From positions 32,001 to 96,000 of the forward strand of contig CAVYJM010000021.1 in the NCBI GenBank assembly GCA_963768855.1: a stretch of 64,000 nucleotides of DNA, read 5' to 3'. Positions 642 through 39,735 of this stretch are shown piece after piece; the first letter of the stretch is position 1, and every line of letters begins with the position of its first letter. Source of the stretch: an uncultured Thermoplasmata archaeon (GTDB lineage: Archaea > Thermoplasmatota > Thermoplasmata > RBG-16-68-12). The position numbers and the translations under genes were made by a program. The notes beneath the pieces are model-generated. The model made no database searches, was not told where the DNA came from, and saw only the letters and a list, made by a program, of their open reading frames with translations.

Positions 642-1276
642 CGCCATCGTTCCATCTCCCGCTGGACATCGGCAAAGGTGTCGAAGGGGATGAAATCGAT
701 CTCCTCTTCGCGGCACAGGTCGGCGAGCTCCTTCTTCGCGAAAACGAGGTCCGCCTCGATGGCGGGGCAGAGGTCCGAGTGGCCGTCGCCGATGTAGGCG
801 ACCCGGTAGCCCTCCGTGCGCAGCTCGAAGAGCCGGTGGAGCTTGCACGTGCCGCAGAGGTTGCAGGTCGGGTCCGCGTACGGATACGAGATGACGACCC
901 GGCCCGCGTCGAACGTCGCGCGGTTCGTCCGCACAGGCAGTGCGATCCGCCACTTGTCCAGCAGATACCGGAGGTAGAAATCGAGCCCCTCGCTCACGAT
1001 TTCCAGGGGCATCCCACGCGCTCGGCAGAAGTCCGCGAAGGCCGGGAACGTCTCGTCGAGGCGCACATGGGCGTCGACGAAACGGAGCATGTCCGCCTCC
1101 GTCGCGTGGACGAGGGCGAACTGCCGGATCATCGTCTCCCGGGTGCCGATCCTCCGGGCGCGGTGCTCCTCCTCGATGTCCCACCATTCCGGGGGCGCGA
1201 ACTCCTCGAGGATGTCCTCCGCGACATCCGTCCGAGTCACCGTCCCGTCGAAGTCGGTCAGCACCGCGCGCTTCAC
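638..1276 (-). CDS. MtnX-like HAD-IB phosphatase
   Basis: VLTDFDGTVT (HAD motif I), IVSEG, YIGDGHSDLCPAIEADLVFAK, C-x2-CGTCK. GTG start at 1276. Confidence 0.85.
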   Translation of the reverse strand: MKRAVLTDFDGTVTRTDVAEDILEEFAPPEWWDIEEEHRARRIGTRETMIRQFALVHATEADMLRFVDAHVRLDETFPAFADFCRARGMPLEIVSEGLDFYLRYLLDKWRIALPVRTNRATFDAGRVVISYPYADPTCNLCGTCKLHRLFELRTEGYRVAYIGDGHSDLCPAIEADLVFAKKELADLCREEEIDFIPFDTFADVQREMERWR

Positions 1277-1301
1277 GGGTCCGCCTCGGGCCCCCGGAGG
1301 T

Positions 1302-2540
1302 TCAGGTGCCCTCGTGCCACGACTCCAGGTACTTCTTCTGTGCGGCGGAGAGGGAGTCGATGCGGATGCCCATCGTCTCGAGCTTGAGCCGGGCGACCTT
1401 GTCGTCGAGGGCTTCCGGGACCGCATAAACGCGGGGCTCGAGGTCTCCCGCATGCTTCGCGAGGTGGGCGGCGCTCACGGCCTGGATTGCGAAACTCATG
1501 TCCATGATCTCGACGGGGTGGCCCTGGCCTGCGGCGAGGTTCACGAGGCGTCCCTCCGCGAGCACGTAGATCCGCTTGCCTCCCGCGATCGTGTACTCGT
1601 CCACGAACTCCCGCACGCGGCGCTTCGATTTTGCCGCGCGCTCGAGTTCCTTGAGCGCGATCTCGTTGTTGAAGTGGCCCGCGTTCGCGAGAACGACGCC
1701 GTCGCGGAGGGCGGGGAAGTGCTTCGCCGTCACGATGTCCTTGTCGCCGGTCGCGGAGACGATGAAGTCCGCGACCTTGGCGGCTTGGGCCATCGGCAGG
1801 ACCTCGTACCCGTCCATCGCGGCCTCGATGGCCCGGACCGGGTCGATCTCCGTGACGAGGACGCGAGCGCCCATCCCCTTGGCCCGCATCGCGATCCCAC
1901 GGCCGCACCAGCCGTAGCCCGCGACGACGAAAGCCTTGCCTGCGATCAGCAGGTTCGTCGCGTTCATAATCCCGTCAAACGTGCTCTGGCCCGTCCCGTA
2001 GCGGTTGTCGAACAGGTGCTTCATCTTCGCGTCGTTCACGTCGATGACGGGGAACTTGAGCTCGCCGTCCTTCTCCATGGAGCGCAGGCGGATGACGCCC
2101 GTGGTCGTCTCCTCGTTGCCGCCGCGGACCCCATCGAGGAGTTCGCGGCGCTTCGTGTGCAGCAGGAAGATCAGATCCGCGCCGTCGTCGATGACGAGGT
2201 CGGGTTTCAGGTCGAGGACCTTGTGGAGGCTGTCGTAGTACTCCTCCGTGGTCTGCCACTTCTTTGCGTACACGTCGAGGCCGTGCACCTCCTTGAGCGC
2301 GGCTACGACGCTGTCGTCTGTCGACAAAGGATTACAGGAGGCCAGTCGGACGTCGGCCCCGGCCTCCCTGAGCGTGAGCGCGAGCACCCCCGTCTTCGCC
2401 TCCGTGTGGAGCGCCATCCCGATCCGGAGGCCCTTGACGGCCTTGGACCGCTGGAGTTCCGTGCGGATGGCGGCCAGGACGGGCATATGGTCCCGCGCCC
2501 ATTCGAGGCGGCGTGCCCCGCGCTCCGCGAGCTCGGACAT
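1302..2540 (-). CDS. ahcY: Adenosylhomocysteinase (SAH hydrolase)
   Basis: SCNPLST, EETTTG, KHLFDNRYGTGQS, GYGWCGRG, GRLVNL, GHPVEIMDMSFA. Confidence 0.97.
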   Translation of the reverse strand: MSELAERGARRLEWARDHMPVLAAIRTELQRSKAVKGLRIGMALHTEAKTGVLALTLREAGADVRLASCNPLSTDDSVVAALKEVHGLDVYAKKWQTTEEYYDSLHKVLDLKPDLVIDDGADLIFLLHTKRRELLDGVRGGNEETTTGVIRLRSMEKDGELKFPVIDVNDAKMKHLFDNRYGTGQSTFDGIMNATNLLIAGKAFVVAGYGWCGRGIAMRAKGMGARVLVTEIDPVRAIEAAMDGYEVLPMAQAAKVADFIVSATGDKDIVTAKHFPALRDGVVLANAGHFNNEIALKELERAAKSKRRVREFVDEYTIAGGKRIYVLAEGRLVNLAAGQGHPVEIMDMSFAIQAVSAAHLAKHAGDLEPRVYAVPEALDDKVARLKLETMGIRIDSLSAAQKKYLESWHEGT

Positions 2541-33656: not shown

Positions 33657-34469
33657 TCACGCGCCGTGCGGTGCCGCCCGCACGAGGGATCGGACGTTCT
33701 CCTCCGTGACCTGGGAGACCGCCTCGCGGAACCATTCGATCGCCTTGCGGCACATCTCCGCAAGATCCTCGGGGGAGCGCACGAAGGAGAGCCCCTCGAG
33801 CCTCTGGACGACGTCGGAAGGGAGTTCGAAGTAGACGTACCGCACGCTGTACCCGTGGTGCGCGGGGTAGTGGCGCATCCGCAGCACTTGGGTCAGGGAG
33901 TCCAGGACGATCCGCTGGTATGCTTCTAGGGCGCCAAGCCAGTTGTGGCGGTGGAGTTCCTTGGACACGAAGGGGCCGAAGAGGGCCATCCGCAGGGCGA
34001 GGCGGTCGCGGCGCTCCAGGACCTTCTTCACGAACCCATCCACGTCGAGGGACGGCATCTTCACCGCATCTCCCTTATTGAAGGAGAAGATCGCGCGTCC
34101 ATGGAGCTCCGGCTCCAGGAACTTGTCCGGCGCAGAACGCTTGAGGACCGCCAGGTCCACGAGGAGGTACTCGCTCGTGCGTTCGAGGCGGTAGAAAGCC
34201 TGGGCGATCCCGCTCTCCGCCGGCCATGCGGGCTCGTACTTCCGCCGGATCGGCGAGAGGCTGCCGAGCGCGTCCTCCACGGCCCGGAACGTCGCATCGA
34301 CCCGGTCGTCCGCCGCCACGATATACAAGTCGATGTCGGACCATTCATCGAGCCGGTCGAACGCGGCCGCGCCGCCCTCCCACATCGCGTCCACGAAGGG
34401 AAGCGGCTCGAGCGCTGCGACGAGGGCGGAGAGGATTGCTTCGCGGTTCACGGGGTAGGTGTCGGGCAT
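33657..34469 (-). CDS. Nucleotidyltransferase-domain protein (MNT fold, LinB/AadK-like architecture)
   Basis: GGAAAFDRLDEWSDIDL (G-G...DxD), VDL, helical C-terminal domain. Confidence 0.7.
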   Translation of the reverse strand: MPDTYPVNREAILSALVAALEPLPFVDAMWEGGAAAFDRLDEWSDIDLYIVAADDRVDATFRAVEDALGSLSPIRRKYEPAWPAESGIAQAFYRLERTSEYLLVDLAVLKRSAPDKFLEPELHGRAIFSFNKGDAVKMPSLDVDGFVKKVLERRDRLALRMALFGPFVSKELHRHNWLGALEAYQRIVLDSLTQVLRMRHYPAHHGYSVRYVYFELPSDVVQRLEGLSFVRSPEDLAEMCRKAIEWFREAVSQVTEENVRSLVRAAPHGA

Positions 34470-35414: not shown

Positions 35415-35963
35415 TCACCGCAGGACGTAGGCGCGGACGATCTGCGTCGACAAGTGCCGGAACGCGGCCTCGACGCTCTCCCCCGTCTTCGCGGAGGAGA
35501 GGAACGAGGGGCAGCCGAGCTGGGTCGCCTTCGCCGCCACGTCGGAGGGCGTGAGCGCCGCCTGGGCCGTGAGGTCCTTCTTGTTCGCCATCAGGACGAG
35601 GGGCACGGGACCCGTCACATCCTGAACCGCCCGGATCCATGCGTCGATCCCCTCGAGAGTGCTCTTCCGCGTGAGATCGACCACGGCGAGAATCCCGCGG
35701 CTTCCGTGGAAGTAGGCCTCCTTCGCGAGCTCGCGGAAGCCCGCCTGACCCATGATGTCCCAGACGTTCAGCTCGAGGGAGACGTGGAGGTCATTGTCTG
35801 GGAGGTCGACCGCCTCGACCTTCTTCGTGACCTTCGCGCCGAGCGTCAGGAGATACCGGTCATCGAACTGGTCCAGGACGTAGCGCCGGACGAGGGAGGT
35901 CTTCCCGACGGCCTTGTCGCCGACGAGGACGGCCTTCGCCATGACTCGGTGCGTCTCGGGCAT
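35415..35963 (-). CDS. Rab-like small GTPase
   Basis: G1 GDKAVGKT, G2 Y..TLG, G3 WDIMGQ, YFHGSRG (RabF-like), G4 NKKD, G5 SAKTG. Confidence 0.9.
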   Translation of the reverse strand: MPETHRVMAKAVLVGDKAVGKTSLVRRYVLDQFDDRYLLTLGAKVTKKVEAVDLPDNDLHVSLELNVWDIMGQAGFRELAKEAYFHGSRGILAVVDLTRKSTLEGIDAWIRAVQDVTGPVPLVLMANKKDLTAQAALTPSDVAAKATQLGCPSFLSSAKTGESVEAAFRHLSTQIVRAYVLR

Positions 35964-36120: not shown

Positions 36121-36414
36121 ATGGCCGGAAAGGACGTCGCGGAGAAGCTCCTCCTCGTGGACCGCGATTTCATCGAGGCGCTCAAGCTCCACCTCCGCGC
36201 GAATCCCAAGGACAACGACGCCCTGGTCGCCCTGGGCCTCTTCATGCTCTCCCGCGGCGAGCCGGACAAGGCCCTCGACTGCTTCAACCGCGTGAGCCAG
36301 GCCGATCCGAAGTATCCCGGGATTTGGCGGTTCAAAGCCAAGGCGTTCGACGCGCTCGGGGACAAGGCCGCCGCCGAACAGAGCCGGTTGCGCGGCTCGG
36401 ACCCGCGCTCCTGA
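36121..36414 (+). CDS. Small tetratricopeptide repeat protein
   Basis: NP..NDALVALG...GEPDKALDCFNRV...DP.Y...W..KA.A...LG...A. Confidence 0.8.
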   Translation: MAGKDVAEKLLLVDRDFIEALKLHLRANPKDNDALVALGLFMLSRGEPDKALDCFNRVSQADPKYPGIWRFKAKAFDALGDKAAAEQSRLRGSDPRS

Positions 36415-36520: not shown

Positions 36521-36550
36521 GGCATCCCGACACATGCCGGGCGAAGGCAT
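36521..36550. promoter_or_regulatory. Alternating GGCAT/ATGCC half-sites upstream of the HTH-alkyltransferase gene
   Basis: GGCAT-N8-ATGCC-N7-GGCAT ending at a TATA-like CATATCAT about 25 nt before ATG 36580. Confidence 0.3.
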
Positions 36551-36579
36551 ATCATCCGCGAGCGCGTTAGGCGACGGCT

Positions 36580-37764
36580 ATGACCGCATACCGCGTCACT
36601 CTCCGTGCTCCCGCCACCGGACCCATCGCGGAGCTGACGCGGGTGCATCCGGGGCTCTGCGTCGAGGGCACGCCGGTGGGGAACCTCCTCCTGCTCCGGC
36701 TCTCCGGCGACTCGGGCACGATCGACGACGCCGAGCAGACCCTCGCCACGCACATGGTCACCCGGCACGAGACGAAAGAGTCGGATGTCCTGACGCTCGT
36801 CGTGGAGGCGCCGCCCTCCGACGTCGGAATCCTTGAGCGCTCGATCGCCGCGGACGCGCTCGTCCTGCCGCCGCTCCGGTGGTGCGGTTCGCAGGTCCTC
36901 ATCCGGCTCCTGCTCTTCGAACAGGTCCGGATGGACGTGCTCTCGGAGATCCTTCCTGGCGCGCAGCTCGAGTCCAAGTCCGTTCTGCACGGCAACGAGG
37001 TCGAGCGGGAGCTGCTGGCCTCCGGACTCCTGCTGCCCTCCCTCACCCGACGGCAGGGCCAGGCCGTCCTCGCCGCCCTGGAGTCGGGCTACTACGATGC
37101 CCCGCGGAAGGTGACGACGGGCGAAGTCGCCTCGGATCTCGGCATCGCTCGCAGCACGTTCGAGGAGCACTTGAAGGCCGCTGAGTCCCAGCTCGTGCGG
37201 GCCCTCGCGCCCGTCGTGCGGATGCGGCTCCTCCAGGCGGAGCAGGGACCCGAGGCGGCCGGTGCGGAGGCCCTCCACCTCTACGCGAAGTTCTCCGAGG
37301 ACCTCGGCCTCTTCGTGAACATGACCGTCCGCGGCGACCGCATCGCGGCCGTGACGATCGCGCCGAAGCCCCCGGTGGAGCCGCACGGCGAGGACCATCC
37401 CTATCTGTCGCGGATCCTCGAGCATCTCGCGACCGGCCGCGACGATCTGCAAGACATCCCGCTGGATCTCGATGTGACCCCCTTCGAGCAGAAGGTGCTC
37501 GAGTGCCTGCGCACGGTCCCCTCCGGCGAGGTCGTCACCTATGGCGACCTGGCGCGGCTCATCGGACGGCCGAAGGCCTCGAGGGCCGTCGGCCAGGTCT
37601 GCGCGAAGAACCCCGCGATCCTGGTCGTGCCCTGCCACCGGGTCGTTCCGTCTGCGGGCGGCGTGGGGAACTACGGAGGAGCGGGCGGCTCTGCGACGAA
37701 GCGCAAGCTCCTCGAGAAAGAGGGCGCGCTCCCGAAGGTCGAAGGCGTGAAGCCTCTCGACTGA
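36580..37764 (+). CDS. Bat-type HTH_10 regulator fused to methylated-DNA-protein-cysteine methyltransferase (Ogt/MGMT)
   Basis: LTRRQ..AV.AALESGYYD.PRKVTTGEVASDLGIARSTFEEHLKAAE (HTH_10); TPFEQKV...VP.GEVVTYG.LA..IG.PKASRAVG, NP..ILVPCHRVV, G.YGG.GG...KRKLLEKE (Ogt, active Cys352). Confidence 0.92.
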   Translation: MTAYRVTLRAPATGPIAELTRVHPGLCVEGTPVGNLLLLRLSGDSGTIDDAEQTLATHMVTRHETKESDVLTLVVEAPPSDVGILERSIAADALVLPPLRWCGSQVLIRLLLFEQVRMDVLSEILPGAQLESKSVLHGNEVERELLASGLLLPSLTRRQGQAVLAALESGYYDAPRKVTTGEVASDLGIARSTFEEHLKAAESQLVRALAPVVRMRLLQAEQGPEAAGAEALHLYAKFSEDLGLFVNMTVRGDRIAAVTIAPKPPVEPHGEDHPYLSRILEHLATGRDDLQDIPLDLDVTPFEQKVLECLRTVPSGEVVTYGDLARLIGRPKASRAVGQVCAKNPAILVVPCHRVVPSAGGVGNYGGAGGSATKRKLLEKEGALPKVEGVKPLD

Positions 37765-37880
37765 ATGGGATCTGCCACAGCGCCTCCGCACTTCTGGTTT
37801 GGCCCCCCGTACGACGGCTTCCGTCGCACCCGTCACATGCCGGCCCAATCCGTAAGGAGTCCGGAGGTCTCGTCGTTTCC

Positions 37881-38330
37881 ATGCTACCCATGCCTCCGAG
37901 CGGGACTTGGTTGTCCCGAGTGCGATACGACCGTTCCTCCCTGGAACTCAACGCCTACATGCGCGACGAGTGGAGATCGAACCCGGACTGGCTCGTCCGG
38001 CGTCCGCTGCGGCGGGATGGCTCCCTCTGGAGTCGGCTGCGCCGGTGGTTCGTTGTCCGTGCCAGGGAGCCGGCGCGATTGCGGGTGGGTCTTTCGGATC
38101 CCGCACCCTCGGACTGGCTCGCGCGCGCGGATGCCTGCCCGCACCTCGTGACGGAAGACCTCGGCCTCGGAACCCAGGCGCAGTTCCTGCGTTGCACGGA
38201 GTGCGGGGACGTCCTGGTCCTCCATGCCGGGCGCGAGTGGCACGTCGGCTCTGCGGCTGAACCCTCTCCGAAGGAGCCGGCCGCTGGAGAACTCCGTCCC
38301 GCGTCGCTGGAGGAGCTGCCGGAATGCTAG
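37881..38330 (+). CDS. Hypothetical protein with possible zinc ribbon (CPH...CTEC)
   Basis: GGAGGT upstream; C-P-H and C-T-E-C motifs. Confidence 0.45.
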   Translation: MLPMPPSGTWLSRVRYDRSSLELNAYMRDEWRSNPDWLVRRPLRRDGSLWSRLRRWFVVRAREPARLRVGLSDPAPSDWLARADACPHLVTEDLGLGTQAQFLRCTECGDVLVLHAGREWHVGSAAEPSPKEPAAGELRPASLEELPEC

Positions 38331-38346: not shown

Positions 38347-39552
38347 TCAAACGGCCCCGCTCGCGGCCCAGTAGGCGGCCAGGAAGTCCATCCAGCCGGC
38401 GCTCGGGAACGCGAACGCTGCATAGTACCCCGGTACCTCCTTCGCATGGTTCGGGAGCGCGATGCCGATGCCGTTGAGCTGGTGGTCCGTCGTCTTCGTG
38501 GCCTGGAGGGCGACGACTGTGGCGTCCACATTGGCGGCCACGAGGGCGCACGCGTTCTGGATTGCCGCCGAGTTCGTTGCAGCTCCGAGCCGCTGCGCGA
38601 AGGTCTTGAGGTCCACGAGGTTGAGGGCGTTGGCCCCGTAGCTGTACACGGCGTCGGCCCGCGCCTTGGATATGAGGTCCGCGTTCGACTTCATGTCGGG
38701 CATCAGCAGGTTCCCGAGCCGGAGCACGGACGCGCCGAGGGCCGGAATCGTGCTCAGGTCAATGGCGGCGTGGGCGTTGATCTCCTCGCCGCTGTGCGGC
38801 GCGGCGCTCAGGAGCCGCTGGGTCTCCTCAATCATCATCGTCGCCGCCTGCCGGGCGCTCAGAGCCGGATGGTCCACGAGCGCCTGCAACGTCCAGTCGT
38901 AGGGGAATCCCCGCCACCCGGTGTACGTCTCCGCGGCGACCAGATAGTCTGTTCGGAGTCCGAGGGCGACGTATTCGTAGGCGACCTCGAGCTGCGCGAC
39001 GAGGCACTCGTCCGCGGCGATCACGTCGACGTGGTATCCGTCGAGGGCCTGGACGACCTCCTGGTGTGTCAAGCGATCCGAGCCGCCGGCCGGTCCCGCG
39101 TGCTCATCGAAGGCCACGTAGTCCGGGGAACCGTGGTCCCAGAAGATCAGGAGCGTGTGGTCGGGCCGCGCCGCCGCGGATGCGTATGCGACGAAGCTGC
39201 GCAGGGTGCCCGGATCTCCCATGTTCGCCTCCTGGCCATCGAGGGCGAACGGAGTCTGTTCCACCAGGGCGCCTTTCTCGACCCGGAACAGGTTCGTGGG
39301 TCCGGCGTAGCGGTCCACCAGGACGTAGACGGCCACCTCGGGCGTCGATCCGACCGACATGAGCTCGTCGAGATCGCTCTGCACGACCGGCACATGGTGC
39401 GCGCCCGCGTACACATCCAGGCTGTTGTCGGCATCGAGGTATAGGAGGTACAGCCACTTCGCGTGCGGTTGTGTTGCGCTCGCCGCGGGGACGAACACGA
39501 CCGCAGTCGCCAAGACCAGCACGACGAACGCCAACGCGATGCGCTTCGCCAT
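38347..39552 (-). CDS. Secreted clostripain-related (C11) cysteine peptidase
   Basis: Signal peptide; W...LYLDADNSL, EANMGDP.TL..F, LIFWDHG (His), DVIAADECL (Cys), LEVAYE, VAAE. Confidence 0.85.
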   Translation of the reverse strand: MAKRIALAFVVLVLATAVVFVPAASATQPHAKWLYLLYLDADNSLDVYAGAHHVPVVQSDLDELMSVGSTPEVAVYVLVDRYAGPTNLFRVEKGALVEQTPFALDGQEANMGDPGTLRSFVAYASAAARPDHTLLIFWDHGSPDYVAFDEHAGPAGGSDRLTHQEVVQALDGYHVDVIAADECLVAQLEVAYEYVALGLRTDYLVAAETYTGWRGFPYDWTLQALVDHPALSARQAATMMIEETQRLLSAAPHSGEEINAHAAIDLSTIPALGASVLRLGNLLMPDMKSNADLISKARADAVYSYGANALNLVDLKTFAQRLGAATNSAAIQNACALVAANVDATVVALQATKTTDHQLNGIGIALPNHAKEVPGYYAAFAFPSAGWMDFLAAYWAASGAV

Positions 39553-39735
39553 CCGCCCCTTCCTCCTGCCGTTCGCACGGAAGGCGGATGCCCTCCGTAC
39601 GGGTTGGCTGGGCATCGGGGTGGGCGTAGATGGTCCCTGCCTACTTACCGTACGGCGTCGGGTAGATGTCCGCGGCTTCCCCGGGGCGGGAGAGAACCTT
39701 TAACCTTCCACTCCGAATCCCCAATAGGGGTGCAC

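Follow-up and report, generated by a model that had tools for sequence, protein, structure and literature searches.

An archaeal HTH_10 regulator fused to a complete O6-alkylguanine alkyltransferase: a candidate alkylation-coupled transcription factor in Thermoplasmata

Can a single archaeal protein both repair alkylated DNA and control the genes for that repair? The question is raised by one gene in a 64,000-nucleotide stretch of DNA (the window) from an uncultured Thermoplasmata archaeon, contig CAVYJM010000021.1, positions 32,001 to 96,000. The gene encodes a protein of 394 residues (P0001) that joins a helix-turn-helix (HTH) domain of the archaeal HTH_10 family to an O6-alkylguanine alkyltransferase (AGT) of the Ogt/MGMT type. 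A first-pass annotation had described it as a Bat-type regulator fused to an intact alkyltransferase, and as a candidate archaeal analogue of Escherichia coli Ada with an architecture of which it knew no description. It is well supported that the fusion is real, ancient and selectively maintained. The whole explanation that we favour, in which the protein is at once a repair enzyme and a transcription factor of its own gene, coupled to alkylation, is in our judgement evenly poised between being right and being wrong.

The two halves of the protein

The gene is a single uninterrupted open reading frame (ORF) beginning with ATG, exactly where the first-pass annotation had placed it, and the motifs quoted there (LTRRQ, GYYD.PRKVT, LGIARSTFEEHL and RAVG) were all found, the cysteine of PCHRV being Cys352. 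The G+C content of the window is about 67%, with no compositional shift at this gene. Pfam assigned HTH_10 (PF04967) to residues 155-206 (E 5e-18, 65.1 bits against a cut-off of 23.1) and DNA_binding_1 (PF01035) to residues 301-383 (E 1.2e-30, 105.7 bits against a cut-off of 27), and the protein scored 92.1 bits with the NCBIfam model TIGR00589 (ogt), whose cut-off is 46.4. With these matches above their cut-offs and the catalytic residues invariant, the claim of an HTH_10 domain and an intact Ogt/MGMT in one protein was borne out.

In the alkyltransferase half, PCHRV occupies residues 350-354 in the context VPCHRV, which is of the AGT type and not of the alkyltransferase-like (ATL) type, and PCHR is kept in all 118 full-length matches. 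When 54 diverse members with identities as low as 41% were aligned, Y321, R335, P351, C352, H353, R354, Y365 and E381 proved invariant and N344 nearly so. The residue register was anchored at Cys352 = human Cys145 and checked against Ada-C and Mycobacterium tuberculosis OGT; the equivalents in human MGMT are Tyr114 (Y321), Arg128 (R335), Asn137 (N344), Cys145 (C352), His146 (H353), Arg147 (R354), Tyr158 (Y365) and Glu172 (E381). The arginine finger, the Tyr114 equivalent, the asparagine hinge and the Glu-His-Cys network are all present, the roles of these residues being taken from PMC10779285. A sequence search of the PDB matched the domain to Ada-C (1sfe, E 5.8e-21). Pfam gave no match in P0001 to the AGT N-terminal domain (PF02870); its fold was found by structure instead. 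In Foldseek, residues ~231-390 superpose over 154-171 columns on complete two-domain AGTs, with target-normalised template-modelling (TM) scores, TMt, of 0.76-0.83; M. tuberculosis OGT (4wxd, E 6.7e-11), Sulfolobus solfataricus OGT (TMt 0.81-0.83), Ada-C and human MGMT were matched. Because the superposition extends over entire two-domain AGTs, this half is a complete Ogt rather than a C-terminal domain alone, and its catalytic intactness, judged from the residue set, is well supported. The two-domain fold and the full catalytic set are shared with the canonical enzymes (S. solfataricus OGT, M. tuberculosis OGT and human MGMT), unlike which the fused Ogt is preceded by ~225 regulator residues and belongs to a separate clade. 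It is 47% identical to the stand-alone Ogt encoded in the same genome.

The N-terminal half, modelled alone with AlphaFold2 (AF2), reached a mean predicted local distance difference test score (pLDDT) of 88 and a predicted TM-score (pTM) of 0.70. The model has two ferredoxin-like beta-alpha-beta-beta-alpha-beta units at residues 1-137, followed by HTH_10 with a long last helix (191-217). The best PDB match of the N-terminal domain is Ta1207, an uncharacterised Thermoplasma protein (Z 9.2 in VIA, 137 residues, root-mean-square deviation 4.1), for which Foldseek gave a moderate TM of 0.42; the other PDB matches are generic ferredoxin-like folds from which no function is transferable. The HTH fold itself resembles sigma-70 region 4 and LuxR-type HTH domains (Z 7-8), and G170, Y171, Y172, P175, R191, S192, T193, F194 and E195 are invariant among the same 54 members.

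An exhaustive HMMER search with residues 1-218 returned 1489 relatives. The nearest are all fusions; the remoter ones are stand-alone proteins of 210-260 residues that align end to end and consist of PF24280 (HVO_A0563_N) and HTH_10. No direct match to PF24280 was found in P0001 at E <= 1 in Pfam, and the link comes from profile-profile alignment, in which hhalign matched the fusion profile to the profile of the stand-alone PF24280+PF04967 proteins with probability 100 (E 1.4e-48, 217 columns). Since the N-terminal half aligns with the stand-alone regulators from end to end, the gene joins an entire regulator to an entire Ogt. That the N-terminal half is a bona fide sequence-specific HTH module is well supported; like the stand-alone regulators, it is about 215 residues long and carries the same invariant HTH_10 motif. 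The label Bat-type holds for the HTH, the only part in common with Bat: a Pfam scan at E <= 1 detected no PAS, GAF or BAT domain in P0001, and the remainder of the half is homologous to the HVO_A0563_N proteins. Bat, together with NarO and DmsR, serves as the functional reference for HTH_10 activators (PMC11218638).

The stand-alone relatives, for example P0143, P0136 and P0178, have three cysteine-rich columns (~C29, C73 and C91, with a nearby His) that may be a metal or redox site. NarO, too, is said to have conserved N-terminal cysteines. Unlike the stand-alone relatives, the fusion clade lacks these three columns and has no conserved cysteine anywhere in the N-terminal half, while it has the C-terminal alkyltransferase of 170 residues. 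The missing columns in the alignment suggest that the original sensing site of the N-terminal domain was lost in the fusion clade.

A dimer is to be expected from the palindromic site described below, and the structure prediction supports dimerisation of the N-terminal half through the HTH and the terminal helix. The homodimer prediction gave an interface score (interaction prediction score from aligned errors, ipSAE) of 0.50, compared with 0.00 for the best of three controls; among proteins known from solved structures as same-chain pairs, 20 of 30 scored this high, and among those known as single chains 1 of 23 did. The score may reflect resemblance to solved HTH dimers. The predicted symmetric interface comprises residues 152-176 and 199-217, with a contact agreement between runs of at least 37% and a partner pLDDT of at least 75. 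The full-length AF2 model, with the family alignment as input, has a mean pLDDT of 84 and a pTM of 0.47, and falls below 50 in pLDDT at 223-230, which indicates two well-folded halves with a flexible joint between them.

Distribution and ancestry of the fusion

The PF04967+PF01035 architecture recurs in more than 110 clusters among the 5.8 billion clustered proteins searched. They are 43-98% identical, mostly 385-430 residues long, and derive from NCBI, JGI, ENA and Logan assemblies; where a source is named, it is Thermoplasmata, Thermoplasmatota or a metagenome-assembled genome of Methanomassiliicoccus. Among the GTDB species representatives the fusion is present in 28 genomes, with the labels Thermoplasmata, Methanomassiliicoccales, 'Methanobacteriota archaeon EA_x' and RBG_19FT_COMBO_69_17. 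When the class was sampled evenly, the fusion turned up in 7 of 201 genomes, mostly from the genus of the window and two other families. The linker is conserved across the family. The only names that the databases give to these proteins are "methylated-DNA--[protein]-cysteine S-methyltransferase" and "O-6-methylguanine DNA methyltransferase". The architecture is therefore widespread in public data and annotated only as Ogt, and what stands of the earlier claim that it is undescribed concerns the literature: a limited search on HTH_10 with methylguanine and on the archaeal adaptive response found no description of the fusion, and a 2023 review of the alkyltransferase family covers Ada, AGT-EndoV, ATL-EndoV (EndoV, endonuclease V) and histone-like fusions and not the HTH_10-Ogt architecture (PMC10779285).

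Maximum-likelihood analysis of Ogt domains places the fused ones together in one clade, apart from the canonical stand-alone Ogt. Two stand-alone proteins, one of 179 residues from genome G156 (locus L013) and P0114 of 221 residues, nest inside the fused clade with supports of 98/98 and 99/95, and for this reason they are read as secondary losses of the regulator half. At the loci concerned (L013, 1495-2034 on the minus strand, and L109, 2501-3166), the whole regulator half is gone and Ogt is kept. Another relative, P0113, is an internally deleted and frameshifted copy, probably a pseudogene.

The promoter palindrome and candidate target genes

Directly 5' of a BRE/TATA-like element (B recognition element GCGAAGG followed by the TATA-like CATATCAT) lies an imperfect palindrome, CCGACA-CA-TGCCGG, our candidate operator. 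The TATA-like part closes the 165-bp upstream region, and the element, recognised by sequence reading, is a conserved block in the alignment of orthologous upstream regions; we infer that it acts as the promoter. No Shine-Dalgarno motif precedes the ATG of the fusion, which stands 30 nt past TATC, and for these two reasons the mRNA is probably leaderless.

The upstream regions of the orthologues are not alignable apart from the palindrome-TATA block. The consensus CCGRCR-NN-YGCCGG is found at -51 to -53 from the ATG in eight promoters (L006, L015, L016, L017, L018, L019, L107 and the Methanomassiliicoccus locus L004), always with 9 nt to TAT(C/G), and the proteins encoded are 52-100% identical to P0001. 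A ninth, L108, has the palindrome with one mismatch, and two members of the 'EA' clade, L027 and L031, have it at -63. Altogether the palindrome, with at most one mismatch, is present in 11 of 29 orthologue promoters, where chance would give ~0.01 matches per promoter. It is perfect in L016, L019 and L004; in L019 both arms have changed together in a compensatory manner (CCGGCG..CGCCGG). In five relatives the strict composite of palindrome, N9 and TATC occurs once per genome, each time at the fusion promoter and with no further targets, whereas the reversed pattern, used as a control, had 0 matches. That the fusion's own promoter holds a conserved cis-element is well supported. The 'EA'-type clade (L022-L039, L005 and L042) has a common promoter block, GGAGCCAAAACCTAT, and an upstream CATG-containing element ~55-80 nt before the start, which suggests a 5' untranslated region and a diverged or different operator in that clade.

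The bare palindrome is not enriched across the window's genome (G000), with 25 matches compared with 30 in the reversed control, nor at one mismatch in the window, with 11 observed and 20.9 expected; only the promoter-anchored geometry is therefore informative. We scanned the genome for a palindrome with at most one mismatch, followed after 8-11 nt by TA[TA]N and a start codon 22-39 nt further on, with an ORF of at least 60 residues. Four sites were returned, compared with one in the reversed genome, and the chance of an in-register motif at one given promoter is ~4.6e-4. The four sites precede the fusion gene, the 149-residue ORF downstream of it, the stand-alone ogt, and a cluster of glyoxalase (vicinal oxygen chelate, VOC), EamA transporter and second glyoxalase genes.

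The ogt site, CCCGCG-TT-CGCCGG, is followed by a TATA-like box with the ATG 35 nt later. It was found first by a hypothesis-driven look and then by the systematic scan, and it is kept in the relative G201 (L113). A regulon is most strongly argued for by the recurrence of the geometry at both ogt genes, and a regulatory role of the fusion gains support from this conserved palindrome common to the two promoters. The palindrome before the 149-residue ORF, CCGTCA-CA-TGCCGG (CCGTCACATGCCGG), has one mismatch and is followed by N9, TAAG, 28 nt and ATG. This ORF has no Pfam family; a CTEC motif in it may point to a zinc ribbon. G202 has a homologue of 140 residues with equal promoter geometry (L118, position 1853), and no homologue stands beside the fusion in the more distant L107. 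The glyoxalase-EamA cluster, a possible electrophile-detoxification target, has the only other exact copy of palindrome, N9 and TATC in the genome. The promoter of the ATL-EndoV gene (L003) has no palindrome. Because the strict motif in the five relatives hits the fusion promoter alone, a larger regulon is backed mainly in G000, G201 and G202. The list of targets is a prediction only, since the scan parameters were set after the examples had been seen.

The genome (2.87 Mb, 93.6% complete) encodes three proteins of the alkyltransferase type: the fusion, the stand-alone Ogt and an ATL-like domain fused to EndoV (Table 1). Ten other carriers of the fusion have similar weak PF01035 matches within long frames. 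A separate Ogt-sized PF01035 gene accompanies the fusion in 9 of eleven carriers examined, G205 having a second strong PF01035 match of unclear kind; G163 (85% complete) and G100 (98% complete) have no separate Ogt. The genes next to the fusion are listed in Table 1. A homologue of the neighbour of 270 residues adjoins the stand-alone Ogt in G156. In L005 a Tag-type glycosylase lies 4 kb from the fusion, apparently by coincidence.

Table 1. Features of the fusion gene, its surroundings in the window and related genes elsewhere in the genome (G000).
Feature	Position	Strand	Basis or remark
Coding sequence of fusion protein P0001, 394 residues	36580..37764	+	single uninterrupted ORF, ATG start
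Residues 1-150, tandem ferredoxin-like domain, HVO_A0563_N-like	36580..37029	+	AF2 model, hhalign, PDB match
Residues 155-206, HTH_10 DNA-binding domain	37042..37197	+	Pfam PF04967
Residues 207-230, extended last HTH helix (predicted dimer interface), then low-confidence flexible linker 223-230	37198..37269	+	AF2
Residues 231-298, alkyltransferase N-terminal domain	37270..37473	+	Foldseek
Residues 301-383, alkyltransferase catalytic/DNA-binding domain (DNA_binding_1)	37480..37728	+	Pfam, TIGR00589
Codon of Cys352, alkyl-acceptor cysteine in PCHRV	37633..37635	+	motif reading
Candidate operator, imperfect palindrome	36527..36540		directly 5' of BRE/TATA-like element
BRE/TATA-like element	36541..36555	+	sequence reading; conserved block in orthologous upstream alignment
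Second palindrome, one mismatch	37830..37843		before the 149-residue ORF
149-residue ORF, candidate co-regulated gene	37881..38330	+	behind second palindrome
Protein of 270 residues, no Pfam match	33657-34469	-	neighbour
Ras/Roc-like small GTPase	35415-35963	-	neighbour
Small tetratricopeptide-repeat (TPR) protein	36121-36414	+	neighbour
Clostripain-family (C11) peptidase, signal-anchor-like N-terminus	38347-39615	-	neighbour
Canonical stand-alone Ogt, 148 residues	G000:C6 ~219668-220165; locus L001, ORF 1492-1938	-	the genome's only other cysteine-bearing ogt
Cysteine-less ATL-like domain (KVVRADG replaces PCHRV) fused to endonuclease V	G000:C11; locus L003, ORF 745-2040	-	
Glyoxalase/VOC (131 residues), EamA transporter (299 residues), second VOC	G000:C6:238542-240300; locus L096		divergent from ACT-domain gene

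Repair, regulation and their possible coupling

When compared with E. coli Ada, the fusion shares the combination of a sequence-specific HTH regulator and a PCHRV alkyltransferase in one polypeptide, a candidate operator just 5' of its own core promoter, and a further repair gene with the same element. It differs in that its DNA-binding domain is the archaeal HTH_10 whereas that of Ada is AraC (no AraC HTH, PF12833 or PF00165, was detected in P0001 by Pfam), and in lacking the N-terminal Zn-Cys4 methylphosphotriester acceptor (PF02805), the actual switch of Ada. In Ada the switch is Cys38 of this zinc domain and not the AGT cysteine (PMC10779285). PF02805 was found neither in P0001 nor in the genome. 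The Ada equivalog NF011964 gave 78.7 bits against a cut-off of 345, the match spanning the AGT part only (249-349 of 354). The proposed analogy with Ada therefore survives as an HTH regulator fused to an AGT and fails for the zinc acceptor, and we class the fusion as a variation on the Ada principle that lies outside the Ada family, with a domain combination of independent origin. A parallel in lineage is provided by the AGT-EndoV of Ferroplasma acidarmanus and the archaeal ATL-EndoV proteins (PMC10779285), in which an alkyltransferase-type domain of the Thermoplasmata lineage is likewise joined to a module acting on DNA. Unlike in the EndoV fusions, the partner here is an N-terminal transcription-factor module rather than a nuclease, and the whole two-domain AGT is kept.

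In the mechanism that we propose, the Ogt half would remove the alkyl group from O6-alkylguanine by irreversible transfer to Cys352, while the N-terminal half (1-218), as a complete HVO_A0563-type HTH_10 factor, would dimerise through its HTH and terminal helix and bind CCGRCR-NN-YGCCGG abutting BRE/TATA in its own promoter. The same site would be read in G000 at the promoters of the stand-alone ogt, the downstream 149-residue ORF and the glyoxalase-EamA-glyoxalase cluster. As one molecule would be spent per repair, the alkylated fraction would report damage stoichiometrically and alter promoter output, either through an altered conformation or because the AGT domain unfolds and is proteolysed, and the output of the palindrome-bearing promoters would track the alkylation load. 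The parts of this proposal differ in strength. That the protein binds the palindrome as a dimer, autoregulates and co-regulates ogt we consider rather probable. That alkylation of Cys352 modulates this regulation is plausible, at the most an even call and perhaps less. That Cys352 itself is the switch, so that every repair would permanently switch one molecule of a dimeric HTH_10 factor, is put forward tentatively.

The coupling to Cys352 is proposed because repair irreversibly modifies the protein, because alkylated AGTs are destabilised and degraded (PMC7216122), and because the ancestral cysteine site of the N-terminal domain appears to be gone; it is further suggested by S. solfataricus, in which ogt RNA rises and OGT protein falls after treatment with methyl methanesulfonate (PMC7216122). 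As there is no Ada-type zinc/cysteine acceptor and no conserved cysteine in the N-terminal half, any switch would have to be Cys352. For the direction of regulation we favour activation by analogy, because the operator lies upstream of BRE/TATA and the characterised HTH_10 proteins Bat, NarO and DmsR are activators (PMC11218638). The alternative, which we do not favour, is a repressor-homeostat in which alkylation would lead to loss of the protein and thus to derepression.

Other explanations of the gene have to be weighed. We give almost no credence to an assembly merge, a frameshift or a pseudogene: P0113 is indeed internally deleted and frameshifted, but the same uninterrupted ORF recurs in the more than 110 clusters of independent assemblies and in the 28 species representatives, its linker is conserved, and its catalytic and HTH residues are invariant. 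It is also improbable, though less remotely so, that the protein is a repair enzyme only, in which the HTH_10 half serves to dimerise the enzyme and tether it to DNA, raising its local concentration or processivity there, and takes no part in transcription. Other AGT fusions do add DNA-acting modules, such as EndoV and a histone-like domain (PMC10779285), and in G100 the fusion is apparently the sole cysteine-bearing AGT; against this, the HTH_10 recognition motif is invariant, as expected of sequence-specific binding, the palindrome keeps a fixed position in the orthologues (apart from -63 in the two 'EA' loci) and recurs at ogt, and most carriers have a separate canonical Ogt. The alternative that we take most seriously, while still thinking it unlikely, is a fusion without an alkylation switch, whose HTH_10 half controls ogt-type promoters or other genes in answer to another signal read by its N-terminal domain and whose Ogt half is a plain repair enzyme, so that alkylation of Cys352 would have no effect on regulation. 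Each half could work by itself, as the regulator is a complete member of a family that works alone and two lineages dropped it and kept Ogt, and no confident inter-domain contact was predicted across the disordered linker. On the other side stand the apparent loss of the sensing site in the fusion clade and the long retention of the fusion with both halves strongly constrained, which argues for functional coupling; moreover, a suicide enzyme carried on a DNA-binding dimer must change when the alkylated AGT unfolds (PMC7216122).

Several observations weigh against the alkylation-coupled explanation itself. The absence of a confident contact between the halves in the full-length model leaves no predicted path to carry a signal. 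Promoters of the ~40%-identity 'EA' clade have no palindrome, save L027 and L031. At L013 and L109, which have lost the N-terminal half, the promoters still bear a decayed palindrome with GGCCGG for TGCCGG, and the palindrome could be bound by another factor. The stand-alone ogt promoters of G202, G203 and G204 retain only a half-site, and the site of the VOC-EamA cluster is only partly conserved, the VOC promoters of relatives keeping partial palindromes. The post hoc choice of the scan parameters also counts here. A conserved repair operon around the fusion was not found when the orthologue neighbourhoods were compared, the neighbours being variable. Finally, G100 seems to have no other cysteine-bearing AGT, and so the fusion must act as a plain repair enzyme too.

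In the literature searched, we found no description of a transcription factor controlling archaeal alkylation repair. If the Cys352 switch is true, the alkylation-coupled fusion would be the first archaeal adaptive response to alkylation, with a mechanism unlike that of Ada, whose sensing cysteine belongs to a zinc domain apart from the AGT. Should alkylation of the AGT cysteine govern DNA binding or protein stability, the problem that Ada solves would have been solved independently here, and nature would have put an AGT domain to "SNAP-tag-like" use as a covalent chemical sensor for gene control. The candidate is testable, consisting of one protein, one cysteine, one 14-bp site and four candidate target promoters.

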